Shown here one piece after another: positions 37,873 through 45,739 of a stretch of DNA of 64,000 nt. Each line of letters opens with the position of its first letter. Positions within the stretch are counted from its first letter, which is position 1. The translations under genes were made by a program, and so were the position numbers. The notes below the pieces were generated by a model that ran no database searches, had not been told where the DNA came from, and saw nothing but the letters and a program-made list of their open reading frames with translations. Source of the stretch: an uncultured cyanobacterium (GTDB lineage: Bacteria > Cyanobacteriota > Cyanobacteriia > PCC-9006 > JAAUQQ01); the NCBI GenBank assembly GCA_963718615.1, contig OY970368.1:2848001-2912000 (forward strand). The letters run 5' to 3'.

Positions 37873-37931
37873 TTTGATGCTTTTTTTGATGCTTTTTGCT
37901 GAGCTCAACTGTTTCTACTTTGCAAGGTCCT

Positions 37932-39131
37932 ATGAAAGTTGCCTATTTAACGGGCGAATATCCCCGTGCTACCGATACCTTCATTCAGCGAGAGATTGCG
38001 GTGCTGCGGCAACAGGGGATTGAGGTGACAACCTTTTCGGTGCGACGGACGGGGGATGAGCATCTGGTTGGACCGGAACAGAGAGAGGAGCGATCGCGCA
38101 CCACCTACCTCCTCCCACCCCATCCTGCCAAGCTTCTCTTGGCCCATCTCACGGGCCTGATGCATTCCCCTTCGCAATATCTCAGCGGCCTCCTCCTGGC
38201 CTGGAAAACCGCTCCACCGGGGCTACGCCATCAGCTTTACCAACTGTTTTACTTCCTCGAAGCGGGCTTATTAGCCTGGGAAATTCGGCGGCGAGAGATT
38301 TCCCATCTGCACAATCATTTTGGTTCCTCAAGCTGCACGGTGGCCATGCTAGCGGCGGAGATCGGCGGATTTGGCTATAGCTTCACACTCCATGGCCCCC
38401 ACGTCTTTTTTAACCCAGAGCATTGGCATCTCCGGGAGAAGATTAAGCGAGCAAAATTTGTGAGTTGCATTAGCCACTTTTGCCGTAGTCAGGCGATGTA
38501 TTTTGCCCCCTGGGAAACCTGGGACCGGCTGCACATTGTCCATTGTGGGGTTGACCCGGAGAAGTTTGAGCCAGTGGAGCATCGGCCAGACCAACAACGA
38601 CTGCTCTATACCGGACGACTGGCCCCGGAAAAAGGCTTGCCGATTTTGTTAGAAAGCTTAGTGAAGGTGCGGCAGCAACACCCAGGCGTAGTTCTGACCG
38701 TGGTGGGGGATGGACCGGCGCGATCGCCCCTAGAATCCCTCGTCCATCAGCTTGGCTTACAAAATTGTGTCGAGTTTGTGGGCTATCAATCCCAAGGGGA
38801 GGTCCGGCGCTGGCTAAACCAAACGGCGGTGTTTGTGTTGCCCAGCTTTGCCGAGGGCGTACCGGTGTCGTTGATGGAGGCGATGGCGGCGGGGGTGCCA
38901 GTGGTGACAACGCAGATTGCGGGGGTGAGTGAATTAGTGGAGGACGGGGTAAGTGGTTTTTTGGTGCCGCCGGGGGATGGGGAAAGTTTGGGCGATCGCC
39001 TCTCACAACTATTAACGGATGCGGCATTACGTCAGCAAATGGGAACGGCAGGTCGAGAGAAAGTTGAGGTAGAGTTTAGCGGTGAGGTTGAGGCAAGAAA
39101 ATTAGGAGAGATTTTTAAGAAGTGCGTCTAG
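37932..39131 (+). CDS. Glycosyltransferase family 4 (WcaL-like)
   Basis: YPRATDTFIQREI, HLHNHF, GRLAPEKG, PSFAEGVPVSLMEAMA. Confidence 0.92.
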   Translation: MKVAYLTGEYPRATDTFIQREIAVLRQQGIEVTTFSVRRTGDEHLVGPEQREERSRTTYLLPPHPAKLLLAHLTGLMHSPSQYLSGLLLAWKTAPPGLRHQLYQLFYFLEAGLLAWEIRRREISHLHNHFGSSSCTVAMLAAEIGGFGYSFTLHGPHVFFNPEHWHLREKIKRAKFVSCISHFCRSQAMYFAPWETWDRLHIVHCGVDPEKFEPVEHRPDQQRLLYTGRLAPEKGLPILLESLVKVRQQHPGVVLTVVGDGPARSPLESLVHQLGLQNCVEFVGYQSQGEVRRWLNQTAVFVLPSFAEGVPVSLMEAMAAGVPVVTTQIAGVSELVEDGVSGFLVPPGDGESLGDRLSQLLTDAALRQQMGTAGREKVEVEFSGEVEARKLGEIFKKCV

Positions 39132-39182: not shown

Positions 39183-39908
39183 TCAAGCACGATATTCTAG
39201 GCAGATGGCTTCTCTTTGTTGGCTATTTGAGAGATTCTCGATGTCCCGTTTCCGTTTATTCCGCTTCTTCTCCTCGACAGCTTTGGGATATTTGTCAGAC
39301 AAAAGTAGCTTCACGAACTTTTCAACAGAGGAGTTAGAGGTGTTATTCAGTTGCGGGGAAGCGACAGCTAAGTTTACGTTTTTGATGCCTCCTCCTCCAG
39401 CGAGAAACATAGTGAAGGCACTAAAAATACTGAATGCAGCCATAGCTTTCTCGGAAGACTTACAAGCAGACTTCCAGGCTTGAAGTAGGAGAAGCTGCAG
39501 ATAGGCAGACTCTAGAGTTAAAAATGTCGCTGGGCCAAACGAATTTTGTGTAGGAAGAACAGAAGATTCTTGTTGGCGCAGTTTTGAATTGCTAAAGCCA
39601 CTCTTACGGGACAAAGGAATTTGAAAAGTTGATAGTGGCTTAACTTTTAATGAGATTTCTAGAGCTCTATCAATTTGGGAGGTAAGATTCAGTAAATTAT
39701 CTATTATTGTTTCTTCTAAAGGTTCTAGAAAACCAGACAAAAAAATCTGTTCAAACTCACTAGAATAAGAGTCATCCCAATCACTCTTAAGTCTTTTCCA
39801 GGATAAGACGAGAGACTGAAAGTCTTCTTGAAAAAGACTGTTGACACTACTCATCTCTTGATACAAAACTTGTGCTTTTTCTGACTGAAAAGAAACTTGA
39901 TTCGACAT
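39183..39908 (-). CDS. Protein with a WXG100-like N-terminal domain and C-terminal extension; candidate T7SS-like substrate
   Basis: W37-x6-W44-D-D..F pattern shared with the two upstream WXG100-like proteins; hydrophobic AFSIFSAFTMFLAGGGG segment and basic tail. Confidence 0.6.
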   Translation of the reverse strand: MSNQVSFQSEKAQVLYQEMSSVNSLFQEDFQSLVLSWKRLKSDWDDSYSSEFEQIFLSGFLEPLEETIIDNLLNLTSQIDRALEISLKVKPLSTFQIPLSRKSGFSNSKLRQQESSVLPTQNSFGPATFLTLESAYLQLLLLQAWKSACKSSEKAMAAFSIFSAFTMFLAGGGGIKNVNLAVASPQLNNTSNSSVEKFVKLLLSDKYPKAVEEKKRNKRKRDIENLSNSQQREAICLEYRA

Positions 39909-39918
39909 CTTCTATTTT

Positions 39919-40203
39919 TCATCTCCTTAGCTGATTAAGAGTTGATTGTGATTTCTCAACGATGTCTATTTGTTCCCGAATATACTGAAGTTGAGATTCA
40001 ATTTCTCGCTGAGATTCATCAAGTATTGATTGAATTTTTTCAAATTCAATCTCAAATGAATCAAACTGAGGGTCATTCCAGGAATCCTTGAGATTCTCCC
40101 AGGCCGATATCAAGCTGATATAGTCAGATTTCAGTAATTCCTTGAATTTATCGAGTTCTAAAGAAAAGTCTTTTCCTAGATCGAGATTAAATGTAGTTTG
40201 CAT
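39919..40203 (-). CDS. WXG100-like small helical protein (W-N-D variant)
   Basis: 94 aa with helical-hairpin character and central W35-x6-W42-N-D; TAATG coupling to the upstream WXG100 gene. Confidence 0.75.
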   Translation of the reverse strand: MQTTFNLDLGKDFSLELDKFKELLKSDYISLISAWENLKDSWNDPQFDSFEIEFEKIQSILDESQREIESQLQYIREQIDIVEKSQSTLNQLRR

Positions 40204-40478
40204 TAGCGATTCCCTTCAAATTCTTCTACGATTTCCTTGTAGTCACTAATAAAATTAACTGATTCCTCTAGTGCTTTATTCGCATCTTTACTGTTGAACA
40301 ATACTTCTTCAAATTGAGGCGAAAAATTATCTTTAGCAGTCCCTTTCCAGGTAGAGCTACAGTATTGCCAAGAATTTTGTAGAGAGTTAAGCCGATCGCT
40401 TAGCTTCTCTCGAAATAACTCTAGCTCCGAATGGAAATTCATGAGTTTATCTACATCTACATCAATGTTATTGCTCAT
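40203..40478 (-). CDS. WXG100 family (ESAT-6/EsxA-like) protein
   Basis: 91 aa; central W44-K-G (STWKGTAKDNF); N-terminal IDVDVDKL as in WXG100 proteins; starts 2 nt after the FtsK ATPase stop. Confidence 0.85.
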   Translation of the reverse strand: MSNNIDVDVDKLMNFHSELELFREKLSDRLNSLQNSWQYCSSTWKGTAKDNFSPQFEEVLFNSKDANKALEESVNFISDYKEIVEEFEGNR

Positions 40479-40480
40479 GA

Positions 40481-43141
40481 TTAATTTTGCTCCTGAACTC
40501 GTTTTTGGAATTTTTGGGCGTAGGATTGAAGCTCTTTCGCCAGTGGGACAGCATAGGGCTTAAGTTTTTCTGGTGCATCTACAGTGCTGTAGTCCTTAAA
40601 GTATGCCCTGATAGGCGGTAGTTTCTGCGCATAGGATTCACCAATCAAAGATTTTGAGTCCTCGCCAGACATACTGAGGATAGTTCGCATATCAAATTGG
40701 GCGAGTAAGGATTTGGGTTTGTCGGTAGTCAGACTCGTAATGCTCTTGAGCTCGTCAAACCAGAGAGTTGTGTGAATACCAAGCTCAGGCCCTTCTGTGA
40801 CAAGTTGCAGAAGGGCCTGGGCATCTTCAGACATTTCTTCGTTGCGTTTTCCCATAAGGGGACGAAGGTTGCTGGCTCTGTTGAGACTACCAATAGCGTA
40901 AATAACGAATAGGGAAGGTCCAAACTTATAAGCGTCGGGATCAGCATCACGGATAGTTTTACGGCGTTCAAATTCTTTCCAGATAGTTTGGAGCAGAGTT
41001 TCTGCCTGCACTATTTGTTGGGTCCGGTTTGCTTGCCGCTTGGCGATAAAGGTTGGAAAATATTGACCGAAAGCTTTGCGAAAATAGAGTGAAAAATAAG
41101 TCCAGGGTTTTTCATCGTCATTTTGGGAAAGGTCGATGATGCAGAAGCGAGCCTTTTGGGGTTGGTAGCTATGAACGAGACTAATAAGTATTCCACCGAG
41201 GATGCCGTAGATGGTCTCCTCTGATCTGCCGACGAGGAGCATATTACTTCTGGGACGGCGGCGGAATATGGCCTGGGTATGGTTGCCAATGCGCATGGCT
41301 TCGCCAAGCCATGCCACACCGGGAACATCTTCAACGTCCCAGTCTTCCAGTTTGAGCAGGTGTTTATTGAGATCTTTAGCACACAGCCAACGATTTTGGC
41401 GGGTGAGGGCAACGAGTTGGTGGTTTTGGGAGAGTTTGGTGGGTCTGGAGCCGTTAAAAACGACGAGGGGGGCAGGGCGGAGATATTCCCGCCCTTTTGC
41501 AATTTCTTGAATTCTGATTAGGGCTGCGCGACGAGCAGCTTCGGAAGCATCGGCCACTTGGCCCAGTTCGTTGTAAGCTTTGCGACCAAAGTCGCGGTTG
41601 TAGATAATGCGACCTGGACGATCGAGTAATTCTACAGCATCCACATTGTTTTCATCTAGGATAGCTCCAGCGGTGCGCTGATCCATTTGCTGGGCCATAC
41701 GAAGTTCAATGAAGGAGTAAATACTGCTGCTGATATTAGTGACACGAGGGGATTGGGAGGCGAGGAGCATATGAACTCCAAAGGCGCGTCCGCGTCGGGC
41801 AATGTCTTCAATGATAAGATTGAGTTCTTTTGTAATACTGTCGTTCTCTTGGAACATGTACTGAAATTCATCGATAACAACAAGAATGCGAGGCATATAC
41901 TGATTCGTTTGTTCTCGATATTCTGAGAGTTTTGCAACTCCAACTTTTTTAAATAATTGACCTCGTTGTTCAATTTTTCGTTGAACATGTTGAAGAATAC
42001 TGAGGCCAAACTCTCGATCGCTTTCAATAGAAATAACTTTGGCGTGAGGAAGTGCCTGGCTATCATTCAATTCTGTATTGAAATTTGTGGTCTGGGAACG
42101 AGTCGGGTCAATATAAACTTGAAACTCGACTCCCTCTTTAAAGTCGAGAAGGTAAAGTTCGAGTTCTAACGGTGAATAGCGAAGAGCAAGGCTGTTGATA
42201 ATGGCGTGGAGCGTATAGCTTTTGCCTGCTCCAGGTTTTCCAGCTAGTAGAGCTTGGCTAATCACGATATCATCTTGATTCGTCCCAAGCCAGAAGTCAA
42301 GGCTGTCCATTGCACCCATGATACCAATAGGAGCACGGATTTCATGCCTACTATCGTATGTCCAAGCTCGGAAGGGTTCAGGATAAAGCTCGTTAAAAGG
42401 AACAGTTTCCACCTTTACACTGCGAAATTCATCACCCAGTTTTTTAATAACAGCATTTATGATTTCTTTGTCGGGAGCTTGGTCTAAAGAGACTTCTAAA
42501 ACTGTATCTCGGGCTATGGAATATGAAAAGGATGGTCGTTTTCCAATAACTTTATTAGTTGGGGTCAGAACAGTGCAGTATTGTTCTATTTTCCCTCGAT
42601 TGATATTTCTAGGCCATTCTGCATCTTGGCTAACATGGAGTACAACAGATATACTGGCCCGATGTCCATTTTCAAGAATTGCAATGAGATCTTCAAATGC
42701 TCGATTATTAAAGCCCGTAGGAAAATCAGAGATAAATAAATAATGAAAGGCTTCTGCCGCAAATGGTTTCGCCTGATTAAACTCTTCTAGAGAGGAAAAG
42801 TCTGATCCTAAATATTTTTGAACAACTTGCTCAATGTGATTTGCCAGATTACGTAATTGATCCTGAATTTCATCAGATCTAGTGTAGACTTTAGGCCCTA
42901 ATACAAAGTGCGGGAGTCCCTTGAACGGAAAACTATTGCCCATCGAGATTGGATCAATAAATATGCATTTTAAGAAGCGTGGAGGAGAAAGCGTTAAAGA
43001 TCTGAGTGCCAGAGCTTGTAAATAGCTTATCGCGCAGTTTCTTTCTACAAAGTTTTTACTTTTAATTAAAAGATTGGGTATCCTTATAAAGTCAATACTG
43101 GTATTTCCAGTGTGATTGGCAGGTGACACAAACGCTGGCAA
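40481..43141 (-). CDS. FtsK/SpoIIIE-domain ATPase, EccC/EssC-like, 5'-truncated by IS1
   Basis: Walker A AGKPGAGKS, LYLLDFKEG, Walker B ILVVIDEFQ, GRAFGVHMLLASQ; degenerate ATPase-like domains on both sides; the frame stays open ~131 codons upstream of TTG 43141 until the IS end at 43537. Confidence 0.88.
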   Translation of the reverse strand: MPAFVSPANHTGNTSIDFIRIPNLLIKSKNFVERNCAISYLQALALRSLTLSPPRFLKCIFIDPISMGNSFPFKGLPHFVLGPKVYTRSDEIQDQLRNLANHIEQVVQKYLGSDFSSLEEFNQAKPFAAEAFHYLFISDFPTGFNNRAFEDLIAILENGHRASISVVLHVSQDAEWPRNINRGKIEQYCTVLTPTNKVIGKRPSFSYSIARDTVLEVSLDQAPDKEIINAVIKKLGDEFRSVKVETVPFNELYPEPFRAWTYDSRHEIRAPIGIMGAMDSLDFWLGTNQDDIVISQALLAGKPGAGKSYTLHAIINSLALRYSPLELELYLLDFKEGVEFQVYIDPTRSQTTNFNTELNDSQALPHAKVISIESDREFGLSILQHVQRKIEQRGQLFKKVGVAKLSEYREQTNQYMPRILVVIDEFQYMFQENDSITKELNLIIEDIARRGRAFGVHMLLASQSPRVTNISSSIYSFIELRMAQQMDQRTAGAILDENNVDAVELLDRPGRIIYNRDFGRKAYNELGQVADASEAARRAALIRIQEIAKGREYLRPAPLVVFNGSRPTKLSQNHQLVALTRQNRWLCAKDLNKHLLKLEDWDVEDVPGVAWLGEAMRIGNHTQAIFRRRPRSNMLLVGRSEETIYGILGGILISLVHSYQPQKARFCIIDLSQNDDEKPWTYFSLYFRKAFGQYFPTFIAKRQANRTQQIVQAETLLQTIWKEFERRKTIRDADPDAYKFGPSLFVIYAIGSLNRASNLRPLMGKRNEEMSEDAQALLQLVTEGPELGIHTTLWFDELKSITSLTTDKPKSLLAQFDMRTILSMSGEDSKSLIGESYAQKLPPIRAYFKDYSTVDAPEKLKPYAVPLAKELQSYAQKFQKRVQEQN

Positions 43142-43612
43142 TAAAACACGAGCATTGCATTCAATATCATAAAAATTCTCGATTTGTCCTAAGTACAGAA
43201 ATTTAAGCTCATCAAAGGAGAGATTTTCACTATGAGAGACTGCTGTTGGTGACAGGAAAAAAGCATAAGGATCTTTATGATTCTGGCTTAAGGATGACGA
43301 ATAGTATTTTTCATGAACAAATCTAATATTTTCAAGTGCACCAGAAGTCTTTGATAAACTTTCTATGCTGTTTTGATAGAGAAATGAGCGGATAGATATT
43401 TCATCTATAAAAATGGTCTTTAAGTGTGAGTGAATTGATCGATTGACATCGGCTATTCTACGCCCAACAAAATCGATCTGTTCTTTCTTTTTCTGCCATT
43501 CTATAAAATTTCTTTTGCTCCTGATGAAAAAATCCCGGTAGTGCCTTTAGCTGGGGGATGAGTATGGTGTGGCCATTAGAGAAAGAAAAAGCAAACTGGG
43601 TAAGACCCTTCT

Positions 43613-43936
43613 GTGCCAATTGCGATGACTCAAGAGCTGCTTCATTGTCCTAACTGTCTATCTGAAGATATCAGCCGTAACGGCTTCAACGATCGCGGTA
43701 CTCAAAGCTATAAATGTCGAGATTGCCATCGCCGGTTTGTCCTGACTCCGAAATCCCTTCCCTTGAGCGATGAAGAGATAGCCTTGCTCGAACGTTTATT
43801 GCTTGAAAGGCTAGCCATCGCTGGAATTGCTCGGGTGATGCAGCGCTCCGAGAGCTGCATTCAGACCTACGTCAACGCCAAAGCTAAAACCGTTGCTCGG
43901 GAGGTGGAAGTGACGAAGAAAGTAAAAAAGCTCTGA
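43613..43936 (+). CDS. insA: IS1 InsA-like protein (zinc ribbon + HTH)
   Basis: CPNC..NG..GTQSYKCRDCHRRF and an HTH (IAGIARVM); ends at the slippery A AAA AAG site. Confidence 0.85.
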   Translation: MPIAMTQELLHCPNCLSEDISRNGFNDRGTQSYKCRDCHRRFVLTPKSLPLSDEEIALLERLLLERLAIAGIARVMQRSESCIQTYVNAKAKTVAREVEVTKKVKKL

Positions 43937-43944
43937 CGGTCCAG

Positions 43945-44385
43945 ATGGACGAACTCTGGTCGTTCGTGGACCATAAAGGAAATAAACAGTGGGTTTGGAT
44001 TGCTCTAGATGCGGACACTCGCGAAATCATTGGCCTTTATATCGGGGACCGAAGTGCTAAATCTGCCGAAGCTTTATGGCGGTCTCTACCGGGAGTGTAC
44101 CGCCAATGTGCAGTCATCTACACCGATTATTGGGAGAGCTATGCCTGTGTGCTTCCTAGCCAACGCCACCGAGCGGTTGGGAAAGAAAGCGGGCTGACGA
44201 GCTACATCGAGAGGTTCAACTGCACCCTGCGGCAAAGGGTGTCGCGCTTGGTCCGAAAGGCGCTCTCGTTTTCAAAGAAACAAGAGAACCACGAGGCTGC
44301 GATCTGGAATTTCGTTCACCATTACAACCAGCAATTGCGCCTTAAGCAGGCTCATACCGCTTCATTCTCTCCAGCACCCACATAA
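43945..44385 (+). CDS. insB: IS1 InsB-like DDE transposase domain (fused via -1 frameshift)
   Basis: DELWSFV..K..QWVWIALD, YTDYWESY, IERFNCTLRQRVSRLVRK.LSFSK. Confidence 0.9.
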   Translation: MDELWSFVDHKGNKQWVWIALDADTREIIGLYIGDRSAKSAEALWRSLPGVYRQCAVIYTDYWESYACVLPSQRHRAVGKESGLTSYIERFNCTLRQRVSRLVRKALSFSKKQENHEAAIWNFVHHYNQQLRLKQAHTASFSPAPT

Positions 44386-44395
44386 TTGGACTACC

Positions 44396-44966
44396 GATTC
44401 ACGACCAGTTGCGAGAAGAGCTACGACAGCTGGATGGACGAGAGCCTCAATCAAGCGTAGCGATTGCCGATTCTCAATCCGTCAAAACGACGGAAAAAAG
44501 GGGGTGGTCTACGGCTTCGATGGGGGCAAGCTTGTCAAGGGTCGCAAACGTCATATCCTCGTTGATTCCCAAGGATTGCTCATCGGGCTGCTTGTGAGTG
44601 AGGGGAATGCATCCGAGCGCCTTGGAGCGATTATTGTTGCTTACCAAGCGCGGGAGAAGCTGACTCGTACCAAGATTGTTTGGGCTGACCAAGGCTATAC
44701 AGGGGAGAAATTTGCTGAGGCTATCAAGCAGATTTGTGGAGCGACGGTAGAGATAGTCAAGCGCACCTCGAAGGAGTTTGAGCAACTCCCTCATCGTTGG
44801 ATTGTAGAGAGGAGTTTTGGGTGGCTCAATCGCTATCGTCGGATGAGCAAAGACTATGAATTACATACGGAATTTAGTGAGGGCATGATCTACGGCGCTT
44901 TCATCCGCTTGATGTTGCGTCGCTTTGATAATTCCGCATCTTAAGCTTTTACTTATAAATTAGCTC
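44396..44966 (+). mobile_element. 5'-truncated IS5-family (IS1031-like) element remnant
   Basis: IADSQSVKTTEKRG, then AAAAAAGGGGG shift into GFDGGKLVKGRKRHILVD, WADQGY, RWIVERSFGWL..YRRMSKDYE; probable right end TTATAAATTAGCTC followed by TAA; left half missing. Confidence 0.85.
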
Positions 44967-45235: not shown

Positions 45236-45739
45236 TCATGCATCGTATTTCGCCACCCGCAACCAGGCATCCTGGGCCGCCGGACGCACATCATCCCAAC
45301 CCATAGAGCGCTTACCATAGCGTGTTTCATAATTGCTGCGTAAATGAGGCTCGGCTTCCTCATAGGTCAGGCCCTGGGGGGCATAGGTCGAATAACCTTC
45401 ATACCCGGTACGGTAGGCCGGAGAATAGTCGTCATAGGTCTGCCCTTTTTTGTAGTAGGGGCGCGACGTATAGGTCTCTTTCCAGTGGGCTTCTTCTACC
45501 GTGGGGTCAACTTTTTCCGCAACCCCTTTACCGGCAAGGCCCCCGGCAACCCCGCCAACCACTGCCCCTACGACAGCGCCGACCGGGCCTCCTACCGCAC
45601 CCCCGATGACAGTTGCCGCAGCGCCCACTCCAGCGGCTCCAACCCCTGTGCCAACGGGATGAGCCCCATGCTCTTGAGTAATCGGATCTTCGTTGTAATC
45701 GACTTCTTCCCGAACAATTTTCTTATGCTGGTCTGCCAT
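45236..45739 (-). CDS. Glycine-zipper hypothetical protein
   Basis: HPVGTGVGAAGVGAA..GGPVGAVVGAVVGGVAGGLAGKG zipper, followed by DPTVEEAHW..Y..RPYY. Confidence 0.8.
   Translation of the reverse strand: MADQHKKIVREEVDYNEDPITQEHGAHPVGTGVGAAGVGAAATVIGGAVGGPVGAVVGAVVGGVAGGLAGKGVAEKVDPTVEEAHWKETYTSRPYYKKGQTYDDYSPAYRTGYEGYSTYAPQGLTYEEAEPHLRSNYETRYGKRSMGWDDVRPAAQDAWLRVAKYDA

Follow-up and report, generated by a model that had tools for sequence, protein, structure and literature searches.

The subject of this analysis is a cassette of four tightly packed minus-strand genes, one for an ATPase and three for small proteins, at positions 39183 to 43536 of a 64,000-nucleotide stretch of DNA from an uncultured cyanobacterium (contig OY970368.1), referred to hereafter, in its full length, as the window. 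The host was confirmed as a cyanobacterium by two photosystem II CP47/CP43 genes in its complete 6.1-Mb chromosome, of which the cassette is the sole WXG100 locus. An earlier note, made from the letters of the window, had read the cassette as a minimal operon resembling a type VII secretion system (T7SS), with an EccC-like ATPase and WXG100 proteins. The features of the locus are listed below, together with the evidence for each.

40481..43536, minus strand: gene of a three-domain FtsK/HerA-type (EssC/EccC-like) ATPase, truncated at its 5' end (PF01580, 3e-29; boundary with an insertion sequence (IS) at 43537)
42218..42241, minus strand: Walker A motif GKPGAGKS, residues 435-442 of the read-through protein P0001 (regular-expression scan)
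41867..41884, minus strand: Walker B motif LVVIDE, residues 554-559, the sole hhhhDE in the protein
40203..40478, minus strand: WXG-A, a 91-aa WXG100 protein with W44-K-G46 at the predicted hairpin bend (PF06013, 36.0 bits)
39919..40203, minus strand: WXG-B, a candidate 94-aa HP0062-like paralogue with W42-N-D44 replacing WXG (alignment to the WXG-A family in hhalign, HP0062 profile match)
39183..39908, minus strand: third gene, 241 aa, with a predicted WXG-B-like hairpin head (phmmer to WXG-B-type proteins, alignment, AlphaFold2 model)
43537..44395, plus strand: IS1-family element of 859 bp with InsA and InsB (Pfam Zn_ribbon_InsA, DDE_Tnp_IS1)
44409..44944, plus strand: IS5/IS4-type transposase gene fragment with open reading frames (ORFs) in two frames (Pfam DDE_Tnp_1, DDE_Tnp_1_2)

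The coordinates in the ORF list agreed with the packing described earlier: a 2-nt gap lies between the ATPase gene and the 91-aa gene, stop and start overlap by 1 nt between the 91-aa and 94-aa genes, and a 10-nt gap precedes the 241-aa gene. The upper boundary given at that time, 43536, is exactly the last native base ahead of the IS1-family element. The ATPase reading frame is open from stop to stop over 40481-43546 (1021 codons, ~1017 of them native) and contains no ATG, GTG or TTG upstream of 43141; from this first TTG, the ORF spans 40481-43141 and encodes 886 aa. Residue counts also bore out the motif W-x6-W-x-[G/D]-x5-F as common to all three small proteins between residues 35 and 52, in the form W37-x6-W44-K-G46-x5-F52 in the 91-aa protein, W35-x6-W42-N-D44-x5-F50 in the 94-aa protein and W37-x6-W44-D-D46-x5-F52 in the 241-aa protein. 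W37, L40, W44, D46 and F52 are invariant across the alignment of nine homologues of the third-gene product.

The ATPase matched the Pfam family FtsK_SpoIIIE (PF01580) at E 3e-29, as had been anticipated, and its family was then placed from model scores and fold matches. Its top sequence matches in the Protein Data Bank (PDB) were T. curvata EccC, EccC5 and B. subtilis YukB, ahead of FtsK. The AlphaFold2 model, computed from a 17-sequence alignment, had a mean predicted local distance difference test (pLDDT) score of 61 and a predicted template-modelling score of 0.37, with alpha/beta domains at residues ~150-375, 400-690 and 760-1020, the middle one at low confidence. Its best Foldseek match was the three-ATPase cytoplasmic domain of EccC (4nh0; E 2.6e-23 over 962 columns), followed by two-domain fragments of EccC and EssC and then by the single-domain FtsK motor, which covered one domain only. 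The Walker motifs were scanned in 121 sequences (P0001, the 820-aa protein P0002 called by the annotators, and 119 homologues): 119 of them have exactly one GxxxxGK[ST] and 120 have one hhhhDE, the two motifs lying in the middle domain, and the P-loop positions of domains 1 and 3 are degenerate. No FHA domain was detected in P0001 or in six homologues.

Three more specific identities were considered for the ATPase and rejected. As EssC, it scored 88 bits against the NCBIfam model TIGR03928 (cut-off 778.4), which aligned over profile positions 853-1008 of 1296 only, and it has no FHA domain and a single Walker A motif. As an EccC of T7SSa, it scored 80 bits for EccCa (cut-off 509) and 76 for EccCb (cut-off 347), and EccB and EccD gave no match in the genome. 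As an FtsK/SpoIIIE DNA translocase, it scored 27.3 bits against NF007615 (cut-off 1566), with the FtsK motor aligning to one domain; the further translocase models gave 32 bits for HerA, 19 for CedB and 11 for TraB. The nearest characterised relatives thus appear to be EccC and EssC rather than DNA translocases, and to this extent the EccC-like label stands. It does not extend to membership: because the EssC and EccC models were missed widely and one active P-loop is flanked by two degenerate domains, the ATPase is best assigned to a separate, previously described class.

The WXG100 identity that had been proposed for the small proteins held for the first of them. The 91-aa protein, with its W44-K-G46, scored 36.0 bits against the Pfam WXG100 model PF06013 (cut-off 27.3), and 37.7 bits against TIGR03930, under the cut-off of 44.85. 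The 94-aa and 241-aa proteins, which carry W-x-D and not W-x-G, gave no PF06013 match at E ≤ 1, and the 94-aa protein exceeded the cut-off of no Pfam family. Family profiles built from 17 WXG-A and 16 WXG-B homologues nevertheless aligned in hhalign with a probability of 98.3% (E 1.4e-14), so the motif likeness of the 91-aa and 94-aa proteins is not due to chance. Against solved structures, the WXG-A profile matched HP0062 (4.5e-9), the S. agalactiae EsxA-like protein SAG1039 (1e-6) and S. aureus EsxA (2e-5), and the WXG-B profile matched HP0062 best (2gts/3fx7; 1.2e-13), followed by EsxA proteins. The predicted hairpin fold of the 91-aa and 94-aa proteins comes solely from these full-length profile matches to solved hairpin dimers. 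We take the 94-aa protein and the head of the 241-aa protein to be divergent WXG-like paralogues, with probable homology at superfamily level only.

For the head of the 241-aa protein, AlphaFold2 predicted helices at residues 9-43 and 47-88 (pLDDT 71-79; nine-sequence alignment), with W44-D45-D46 at the turn. The remainder was mostly modelled at low confidence, comprising a poorly modelled middle with a hydrophobic Gly-rich segment and then a basic KRKR tail; only the C-terminal helix, from about residue 211, reached pLDDT 66-76. The LXG model (PF04740), which had been suggested as a search model for the small proteins, gave no match to the 241-aa protein at E ≤ 1, and none was found among the third-gene homologues scanned. 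A full HMMER scan of 1.84 billion cluster representatives returned two further relatives, P0123 over the full length (35% identity) and P0124 over the head only. A word-indexed search of 5.8 billion proteins returned the 241-aa protein alone, and the ESM Atlas gave no usable match.

A word-indexed protein search with the ATPase yielded 649 matches. The best homologues, 47-58% identical and 1000-1340 aa long, came from cyanobacteria, namely Nostoc, Lyngbya, Arthrospira/Limnospira, Xenococcaceae, Symploca, Geminocystis, Cyanobacterium, Euhalothece, Pseudanabaena and Leptolyngbya, and Chloroflexi homologues were ~42% identical. Twenty loci were compared, 13 of them (L005-L017) from cyanobacteria, one Candidatus Obscuribacter and three Chloroflexi, and seven (L086-L092) from a survey of the phylum. 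In 18 of the 20, the gene immediately downstream of that for the ATPase is WXG-A-like, the exceptions being L009, where the contig ends, and L017, in line with the earlier expectation that ATPase homologues co-occur with WXG-like genes. The next gene is WXG-B-like in 16 loci at E ≤ 1e-10, and weakly so in two more. The order ATPase, WXG-A, WXG-B is therefore kept in 16-18 of the 20 loci, across cyanobacteria, Chloroflexi and a melainabacterium. Eight of the 20 loci also encode a longer protein whose head is WXG-B-like, and in six others the long protein has a different helical head, of one kind in L005, L006 and L014 and of another in L016, L091 and L092.

The C-termini of the long proteins vary. 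An ART domain was found in L005 (PF01129, 6e-9), with a near-identical orthologue in L006 (phmmer), and a GNAT domain in L088, L089 and L092. The GNAT cassette of L092 (2363-3772) is homologous to those of L088 (6377-7099) and L089 (9202-9945) at E 4e-15, on unrelated heads; this occurrence of one cassette on two heads is the domain-shuffling pattern of polymorphic effectors. Five of the 20 loci (L005-L008 and L090) also encode ARC6-like IMS-domain membrane proteins and a Beta-lactamase2-family protein, which we infer to be envelope-facing accessory parts, and L090 encodes a Pkinase-ARC6_IMS fusion.

Other additions were of a cytoplasmic type. In a subset of the ATPases (P0008, P0012, P0101 and others), an S1 (OB-fold) domain is inserted between domain 1 and the active domain, and single homologues (P0064 and P0083 are listed) carry an N-terminal caspase with HATPase_c_4 or an inserted Hsp70 fragment; these S1, caspase and Hsp70 additions may be real architectures or assembly chimeras. 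A HepT-like RNase/MNT nucleotidyltransferase toxin-antitoxin pair was identified with Pfam between the ATPase and WXG-A genes of L088 (8080-8749), and ORF pairs homologous to it were recognised by eye, from ORF translations, at the same place in L086, L087 and L089. In L091 (2082-6472), whose ATPase is ~32% identical and belongs to a distant subfamily, genes for a prokaryotic JAB-domain protein and a WD40-repeat protein of 1251 aa come after the cassette, surroundings that look like a conflict-system neighbourhood.

The relatives also provided a membrane anchor. ATPase homologues of at least 1190 aa have about two predicted transmembrane (TM) helices at residues ~130-220, behind a coiled coil, whereas those of 1000-1150 aa have none predicted. 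In the loci of these short forms, the gene just upstream encodes a protein of 140-520 aa that has a coiled coil and, towards its C-terminus, a TM segment (two in some), and such upstream proteins are homologues of the N-terminal region found in the long forms (L009 vs P0040, 1.6e-34; L089 vs P0034, 6.6e-37; L005 vs P0033, 2e-18). Because an anchor, fused or split, was found in 17 of the 20 loci, the cassette of the relatives is predicted to be membrane-associated, as EssC and EccC are, and the earlier picture of a minimal module devoid of membrane parts had to be abandoned; it described a copy that had lost its anchor. In three Cyanobacterium/Geminocystis-like loci, the anchor region is fragmented into one or two short ORFs upstream of the ATPase gene (L087:7375-7904, L086:7587-8012 and L089:4075-4431), and no TM segment was predicted in the pieces from L086 and L089. 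This suggests frameshifts or an ongoing fission of the long form.

Beyond this group, three-domain ATPase matches at 25-27% identity were found in Bacillota (L021, L025, L032, L041, L042), Actinomycetota (L023, L029) and viral contigs (L093, L094). A single Walker A motif was present in ten of the 11 such distant ATPases checked, L042 having a second, C-terminal one, and no strong TM helix was predicted in any of the 11. The middle-active ATPase family is thus not confined to diderms. Among these distant loci, the WXG profiles detected adjacent WXG-like genes only in L018, L020 and L029.

In its own genome, the cassette stands apart. The GC content is 0.41-0.49 across 38-44 kb of the window, compared with ~0.55 in the flanks. 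At E ≤ 1e-60, the ATPase was found in eight of 401 sampled cyanobacterial genomes and in seven of 155 genera; it was present in none of 30 relatives, including seven of the same family, five of which are only 62-88% complete. We take the cassette to be a horizontally acquired low-GC island of sporadic distribution. Searches of plasmids and viral contigs returned a handful of relatives at 25-30% identity and no closely related mobile carrier, the matching plasmid records numbering five at 26-30% identity. Models of EccB, EccD, EssB and EsaA, to which control genomes responded, found no match in the 100%-complete genome, which extends to the whole chromosome the absence of these four components previously remarked on for the window; EccE and MycP were not searched. 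Two other genes lie near the cassette. The one at 37896-39131 (plus strand) flanks the island and encodes a group-1 glycosyltransferase that passes the Pfam model GT4-conflict (47.8 bits, cut-off 26); it is probably chromosomal and not part of the island, because its GC content equals that of the host. The other, at 45236-45739 (minus strand), encodes a 167-aa protein with a long Gly/Ala/Val-rich stretch and 24 bits for an RTX N-terminal domain (cut-off 26.8).

An island-like locus with IS neighbours could be expected of a mobile element, and the ATPase might on that account be a DNA translocase of the FtsK/TraB/TcpA type, with the small helical proteins as unrelated accessories. The FtsK_SpoIIIE Pfam domain would fit, as would the FtsK motor and TcpA coupling-protein structures that occur lower in the fold and sequence match lists. 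We consider this highly improbable, given that the FtsK, TraB and CedB models scored 27, 11 and 19 bits vs 76-88 for EssC and EccC, three-domain alignments were obtained only with EccC and EssC, and WXG-like genes stand behind the ATPase gene in 18 of 20 loci. Moreover, Pfam scans of the neighbourhoods revealed no relaxase, integrase or conjugation genes, and just the five plasmid records mentioned matched the ATPase, at low identity.

The 5' end of the cassette was then considered. The IS1-family element abuts the ATPase frame, so that native ATPase sequence starts mid-frame at 43536, and the IS5-type fragment sits at the place expected for the ATPase start and the anchor gene. By alignment with the short forms, the start codon and a few N-terminal residues are missing, an estimate that is uncertain in this poorly conserved region. 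The anchor gene is lost, with all that lay upstream of it. A tblastn search of the 6.1-Mb genome, in which the N-termini of 119 homologues and 17 neighbour proteins served as queries, detected neither the anchor nor the ATPase N-terminus at any other place. Ten copies of the IS1-family element, 99-100% identical, are present in the genome, seven of them with target duplications of 7-9 bp. The copies at genome positions 1007938, 2105517 and 2891537 (the last being that at window 43537) have no target-site duplication, and one of these three is internally deleted to 404 bp, which suggests several IS-mediated rearrangements in the genome. A simple inversion between the copies at 2105517 and window 43537 was rejected on their flanks, which do not match; because the flanks of these two full-length duplication-free copies do not pair, an adjacent deletion is favoured. 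We conclude that the 5' part was removed by an IS-associated rearrangement, and recently, as the remaining frames stay open. The window copy, having lost the anchor gene and the ATPase start codon, is probably a remnant.

Taken together, we consider it likely that the cassette is a truncated foreign copy of a minimal T7SS-like cassette, whose intact relatives are predicted to export hairpin proteins and cargo, and which is itself non-functional in this genome. In the intact relatives, by analogy with EccC and EssC, the anchored ATPase would oligomerise as a ring at the cytoplasmic membrane. WXG-A and WXG-B would pair, either together or with the third protein's head, into four-helix bundles as EsxAB does, and the degenerate domain 3 of the ATPase may dock the C-terminal helix of a hairpin protein in the way that domain 3 of EccC binds EsxB. 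ATP hydrolysis in the middle domain would then power export across the cytoplasmic membrane. In the genome studied here, the cassette would not work because it has neither a start codon nor an anchor. A fuller version of this scheme is possible but doubtful: the intact relatives might constitute a self-contained type VII-like export pathway in diderm cyanobacteria, Chloroflexi and Melainabacteria, in which a TM-anchored single-motor ATPase handles hairpin bundles with ART, GNAT or other effectors, helped by ARC6-IMS proteins, an EssB-like kinase-TM-IMS protein and a beta-lactamase-fold peptidoglycan-binding protein.

Several observations weigh against the export reading. The AlphaFold2 models are weak (pLDDT 61 for the ATPase, mean pLDDT 56 for the 241-aa protein) and leave the three-domain mapping onto EccC uncertain. 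YxxxD/E is the C-terminal export motif of T7SS substrates; inspected by eye, the WXG-A alignment shows a conserved C-terminal patch, W-L-x4-E-I-V-x2-F-E, and no conserved YxxxD/E. Periplasm-facing accessory genes occur in just five of the 20 loci, with no outer-membrane component evident, and with the WXG profiles no WXG gene was detected next to the ATPase genes of the family's firmicute members. The cytoplasm-type additions (S1, caspase, JAB and WD40) fit intracellular conflict equally well. All four frames of the window copy are open, including ~1017 ATPase codons, so that the truncation is recent or a shortened product is possible, and internal starts may be provided by the TTG at 43141 or by the ATG of the annotators' 820-aa call. 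Finally, no export experiment on any member of the class was found in the full-text literature, from which subscription-only papers were outside scope.

The intact frames, and the fact that the annotators called the product P0002, could mean that the truncated cassette still functions, with a shortened ATPase that is made from an internal start, driven by an IS or internal promoter, and acts anchor-free on the hairpin proteins. One minus-strand promoter-like site does lie within the remaining 5' region, at 43335-43306; such sites were no commoner than in shuffled sequence (eight found vs 8.7 expected), and the terminator scan was likewise at shuffle level. A start at 43141 or later would drop the coiled-coil region, that of the annotators would also drop conserved domain 1 residues (invariant R168 to G202), and no copy of the anchor gene was found at another place in the chromosome. 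As the IS copies are 99-100% identical, the event may be recent and the frames open by default. We therefore judge residual function to be quite unlikely, and favour a broken, inactive copy.

A role in intracellular conflict or defence, which the earlier note had also raised, is likewise unlikely, though somewhat less so. Here, the ATPase would sense or remodel a cytoplasmic target, and the hairpin proteins would regulate ART and GNAT effectors acting on the producer in the style of abortive infection. Such a system would accommodate the S1 insert, the N-terminal caspase with HATPase_c_4 and the Hsp70 fragment of the homologues, the JAB and 1251-aa WD40 proteins adjoining the L091 cassette, and the HepT/MNT pair inside the L088 operon with its ORF-pair homologues in L086, L087 and L089, as well as the patchy, island-like distribution and the fact that no outer-membrane partner was found. 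PADLOC-DB 2.0, however, produced only generic P-loop-level matches, confined to ATPase residues 431-640 (mad8 65, SspH 54, HerA ≤ 32 bits), and none for the three small proteins. The TM anchor fused or adjacent in 17 of 20 loci, the ARC6-like IMS and beta-lactamase-fold neighbours that point to the envelope, and the secretion ATPases and secreted WXG100 proteins that are the nearest characterised relatives all argue for export by the intact cassettes instead.

If the fuller version of the export reading is true, the intact relatives would represent a contact- or secretion-based competition system of a kind uncharacterised in the phylum so far. The window copy, as a recently broken remnant of a foreign island, is a poor experimental subject, and the analysis names intact loci, in Arthrospira/Limnospira, Geminocystis and Cyanobacterium relatives, where export, toxicity and envelope passage are testable. 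To our knowledge, studies of type VII secretion are confined to Actinomycetota and Bacillota. The literature covered here yielded no experiments on such a system from cyanobacteria or another diderm phylum.

The novelty claimed for a cyanobacterial system of this type is nevertheless weakened by two publications. Footnote 6 to Table 1 of Zhang et al. (2012) lists the T7SS-like module class for cyanobacteria among other phyla, and the window cassette is a broken copy of this class, in print since at least 2012 and never characterised. The features described there recur in the present loci: three HerA/FtsK-like domains with a single Walker A/B pair in the active middle one, adjacent WXG-like genes without canonical components, and a sporadic, patchy distribution. 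That paper devotes one sentence to the module and gives no anatomy, whereas three tandem WXG-like genes, not one, are found here. Beyond that sentence, the cyanobacterial clade now has an anatomy, with a split or fused anchor, a single active motor domain, a tandem of three hairpin genes, swappable ART/GNAT cargo and envelope-facing neighbours (ARC6-IMS, kinase and beta-lactamase-fold), and with a truncated copy in the window.

The second publication describes HP0062 of H. pylori (3FX7, 2GTS; PMC3397514) as a helical hairpin of ~90 aa whose bend carries W-R-D and which dimerises into an antiparallel four-helix bundle, and places its gene beside an FtsK/SpoIIIE gene. Among solved structures, HP0062 is the closest match to both small-protein families, and its W-R-D bend resembles W-N-D and W-D-D here. 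It differs in being, on that account, a single gene with a homodimer in the crystal, whereas two paralogues and a long-tailed third member stand in tandem in the window. In the A. platensis NIES-39 genome paper, the Pfam Hp0062 domain was reported as unique to NIES-39 among the 38 genomes compared (PMC2853384).

Compared with FtsK/SpoIIIE, TraB and TcpA, the cassette ATPase shares the RecA-like FtsK motor fold in its middle domain. Those proteins are single-domain motors, whereas WXG genes adjoin the ATPase gene here (18 of 20 loci) and no DNA-mobility genes occur in the scanned neighbourhoods. With T7SSa (EccB, EccC, EccD, EccE, MycP and EsxA/EsxB), the cassette has in common the T. curvata EccC as best ATPase match and tandem hairpin genes like esxB-esxA; it differs in that EccB and EccD were not found in the genome, the EccCa and EccCb scores are far under the cut-offs, and no YxxxD/E is conserved as judged by eye. 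The T7SSb of Bacillota (EssC, EsxA and LXG toxins with Lap/WXG partners) differs in its three nucleotide-binding domains, compared with one active and two degenerate P-loop domains and no FHA domain here, where EssB and EsaA were not found in the genome, LXG had no Pfam match and the host is a diderm. The two nonetheless share an FtsK-type ATPase gene adjoining WXG100 genes, and small helical proteins alongside longer helical-headed proteins with interchangeable C-terminal toxin-type domains (ART, GNAT). The L090 Pkinase-ARC6_IMS fusion, arranged as kinase, TM segment and extracytoplasmic part, may moreover be alike in layout to the membrane pseudokinase EssB/YukC of T7SSb.

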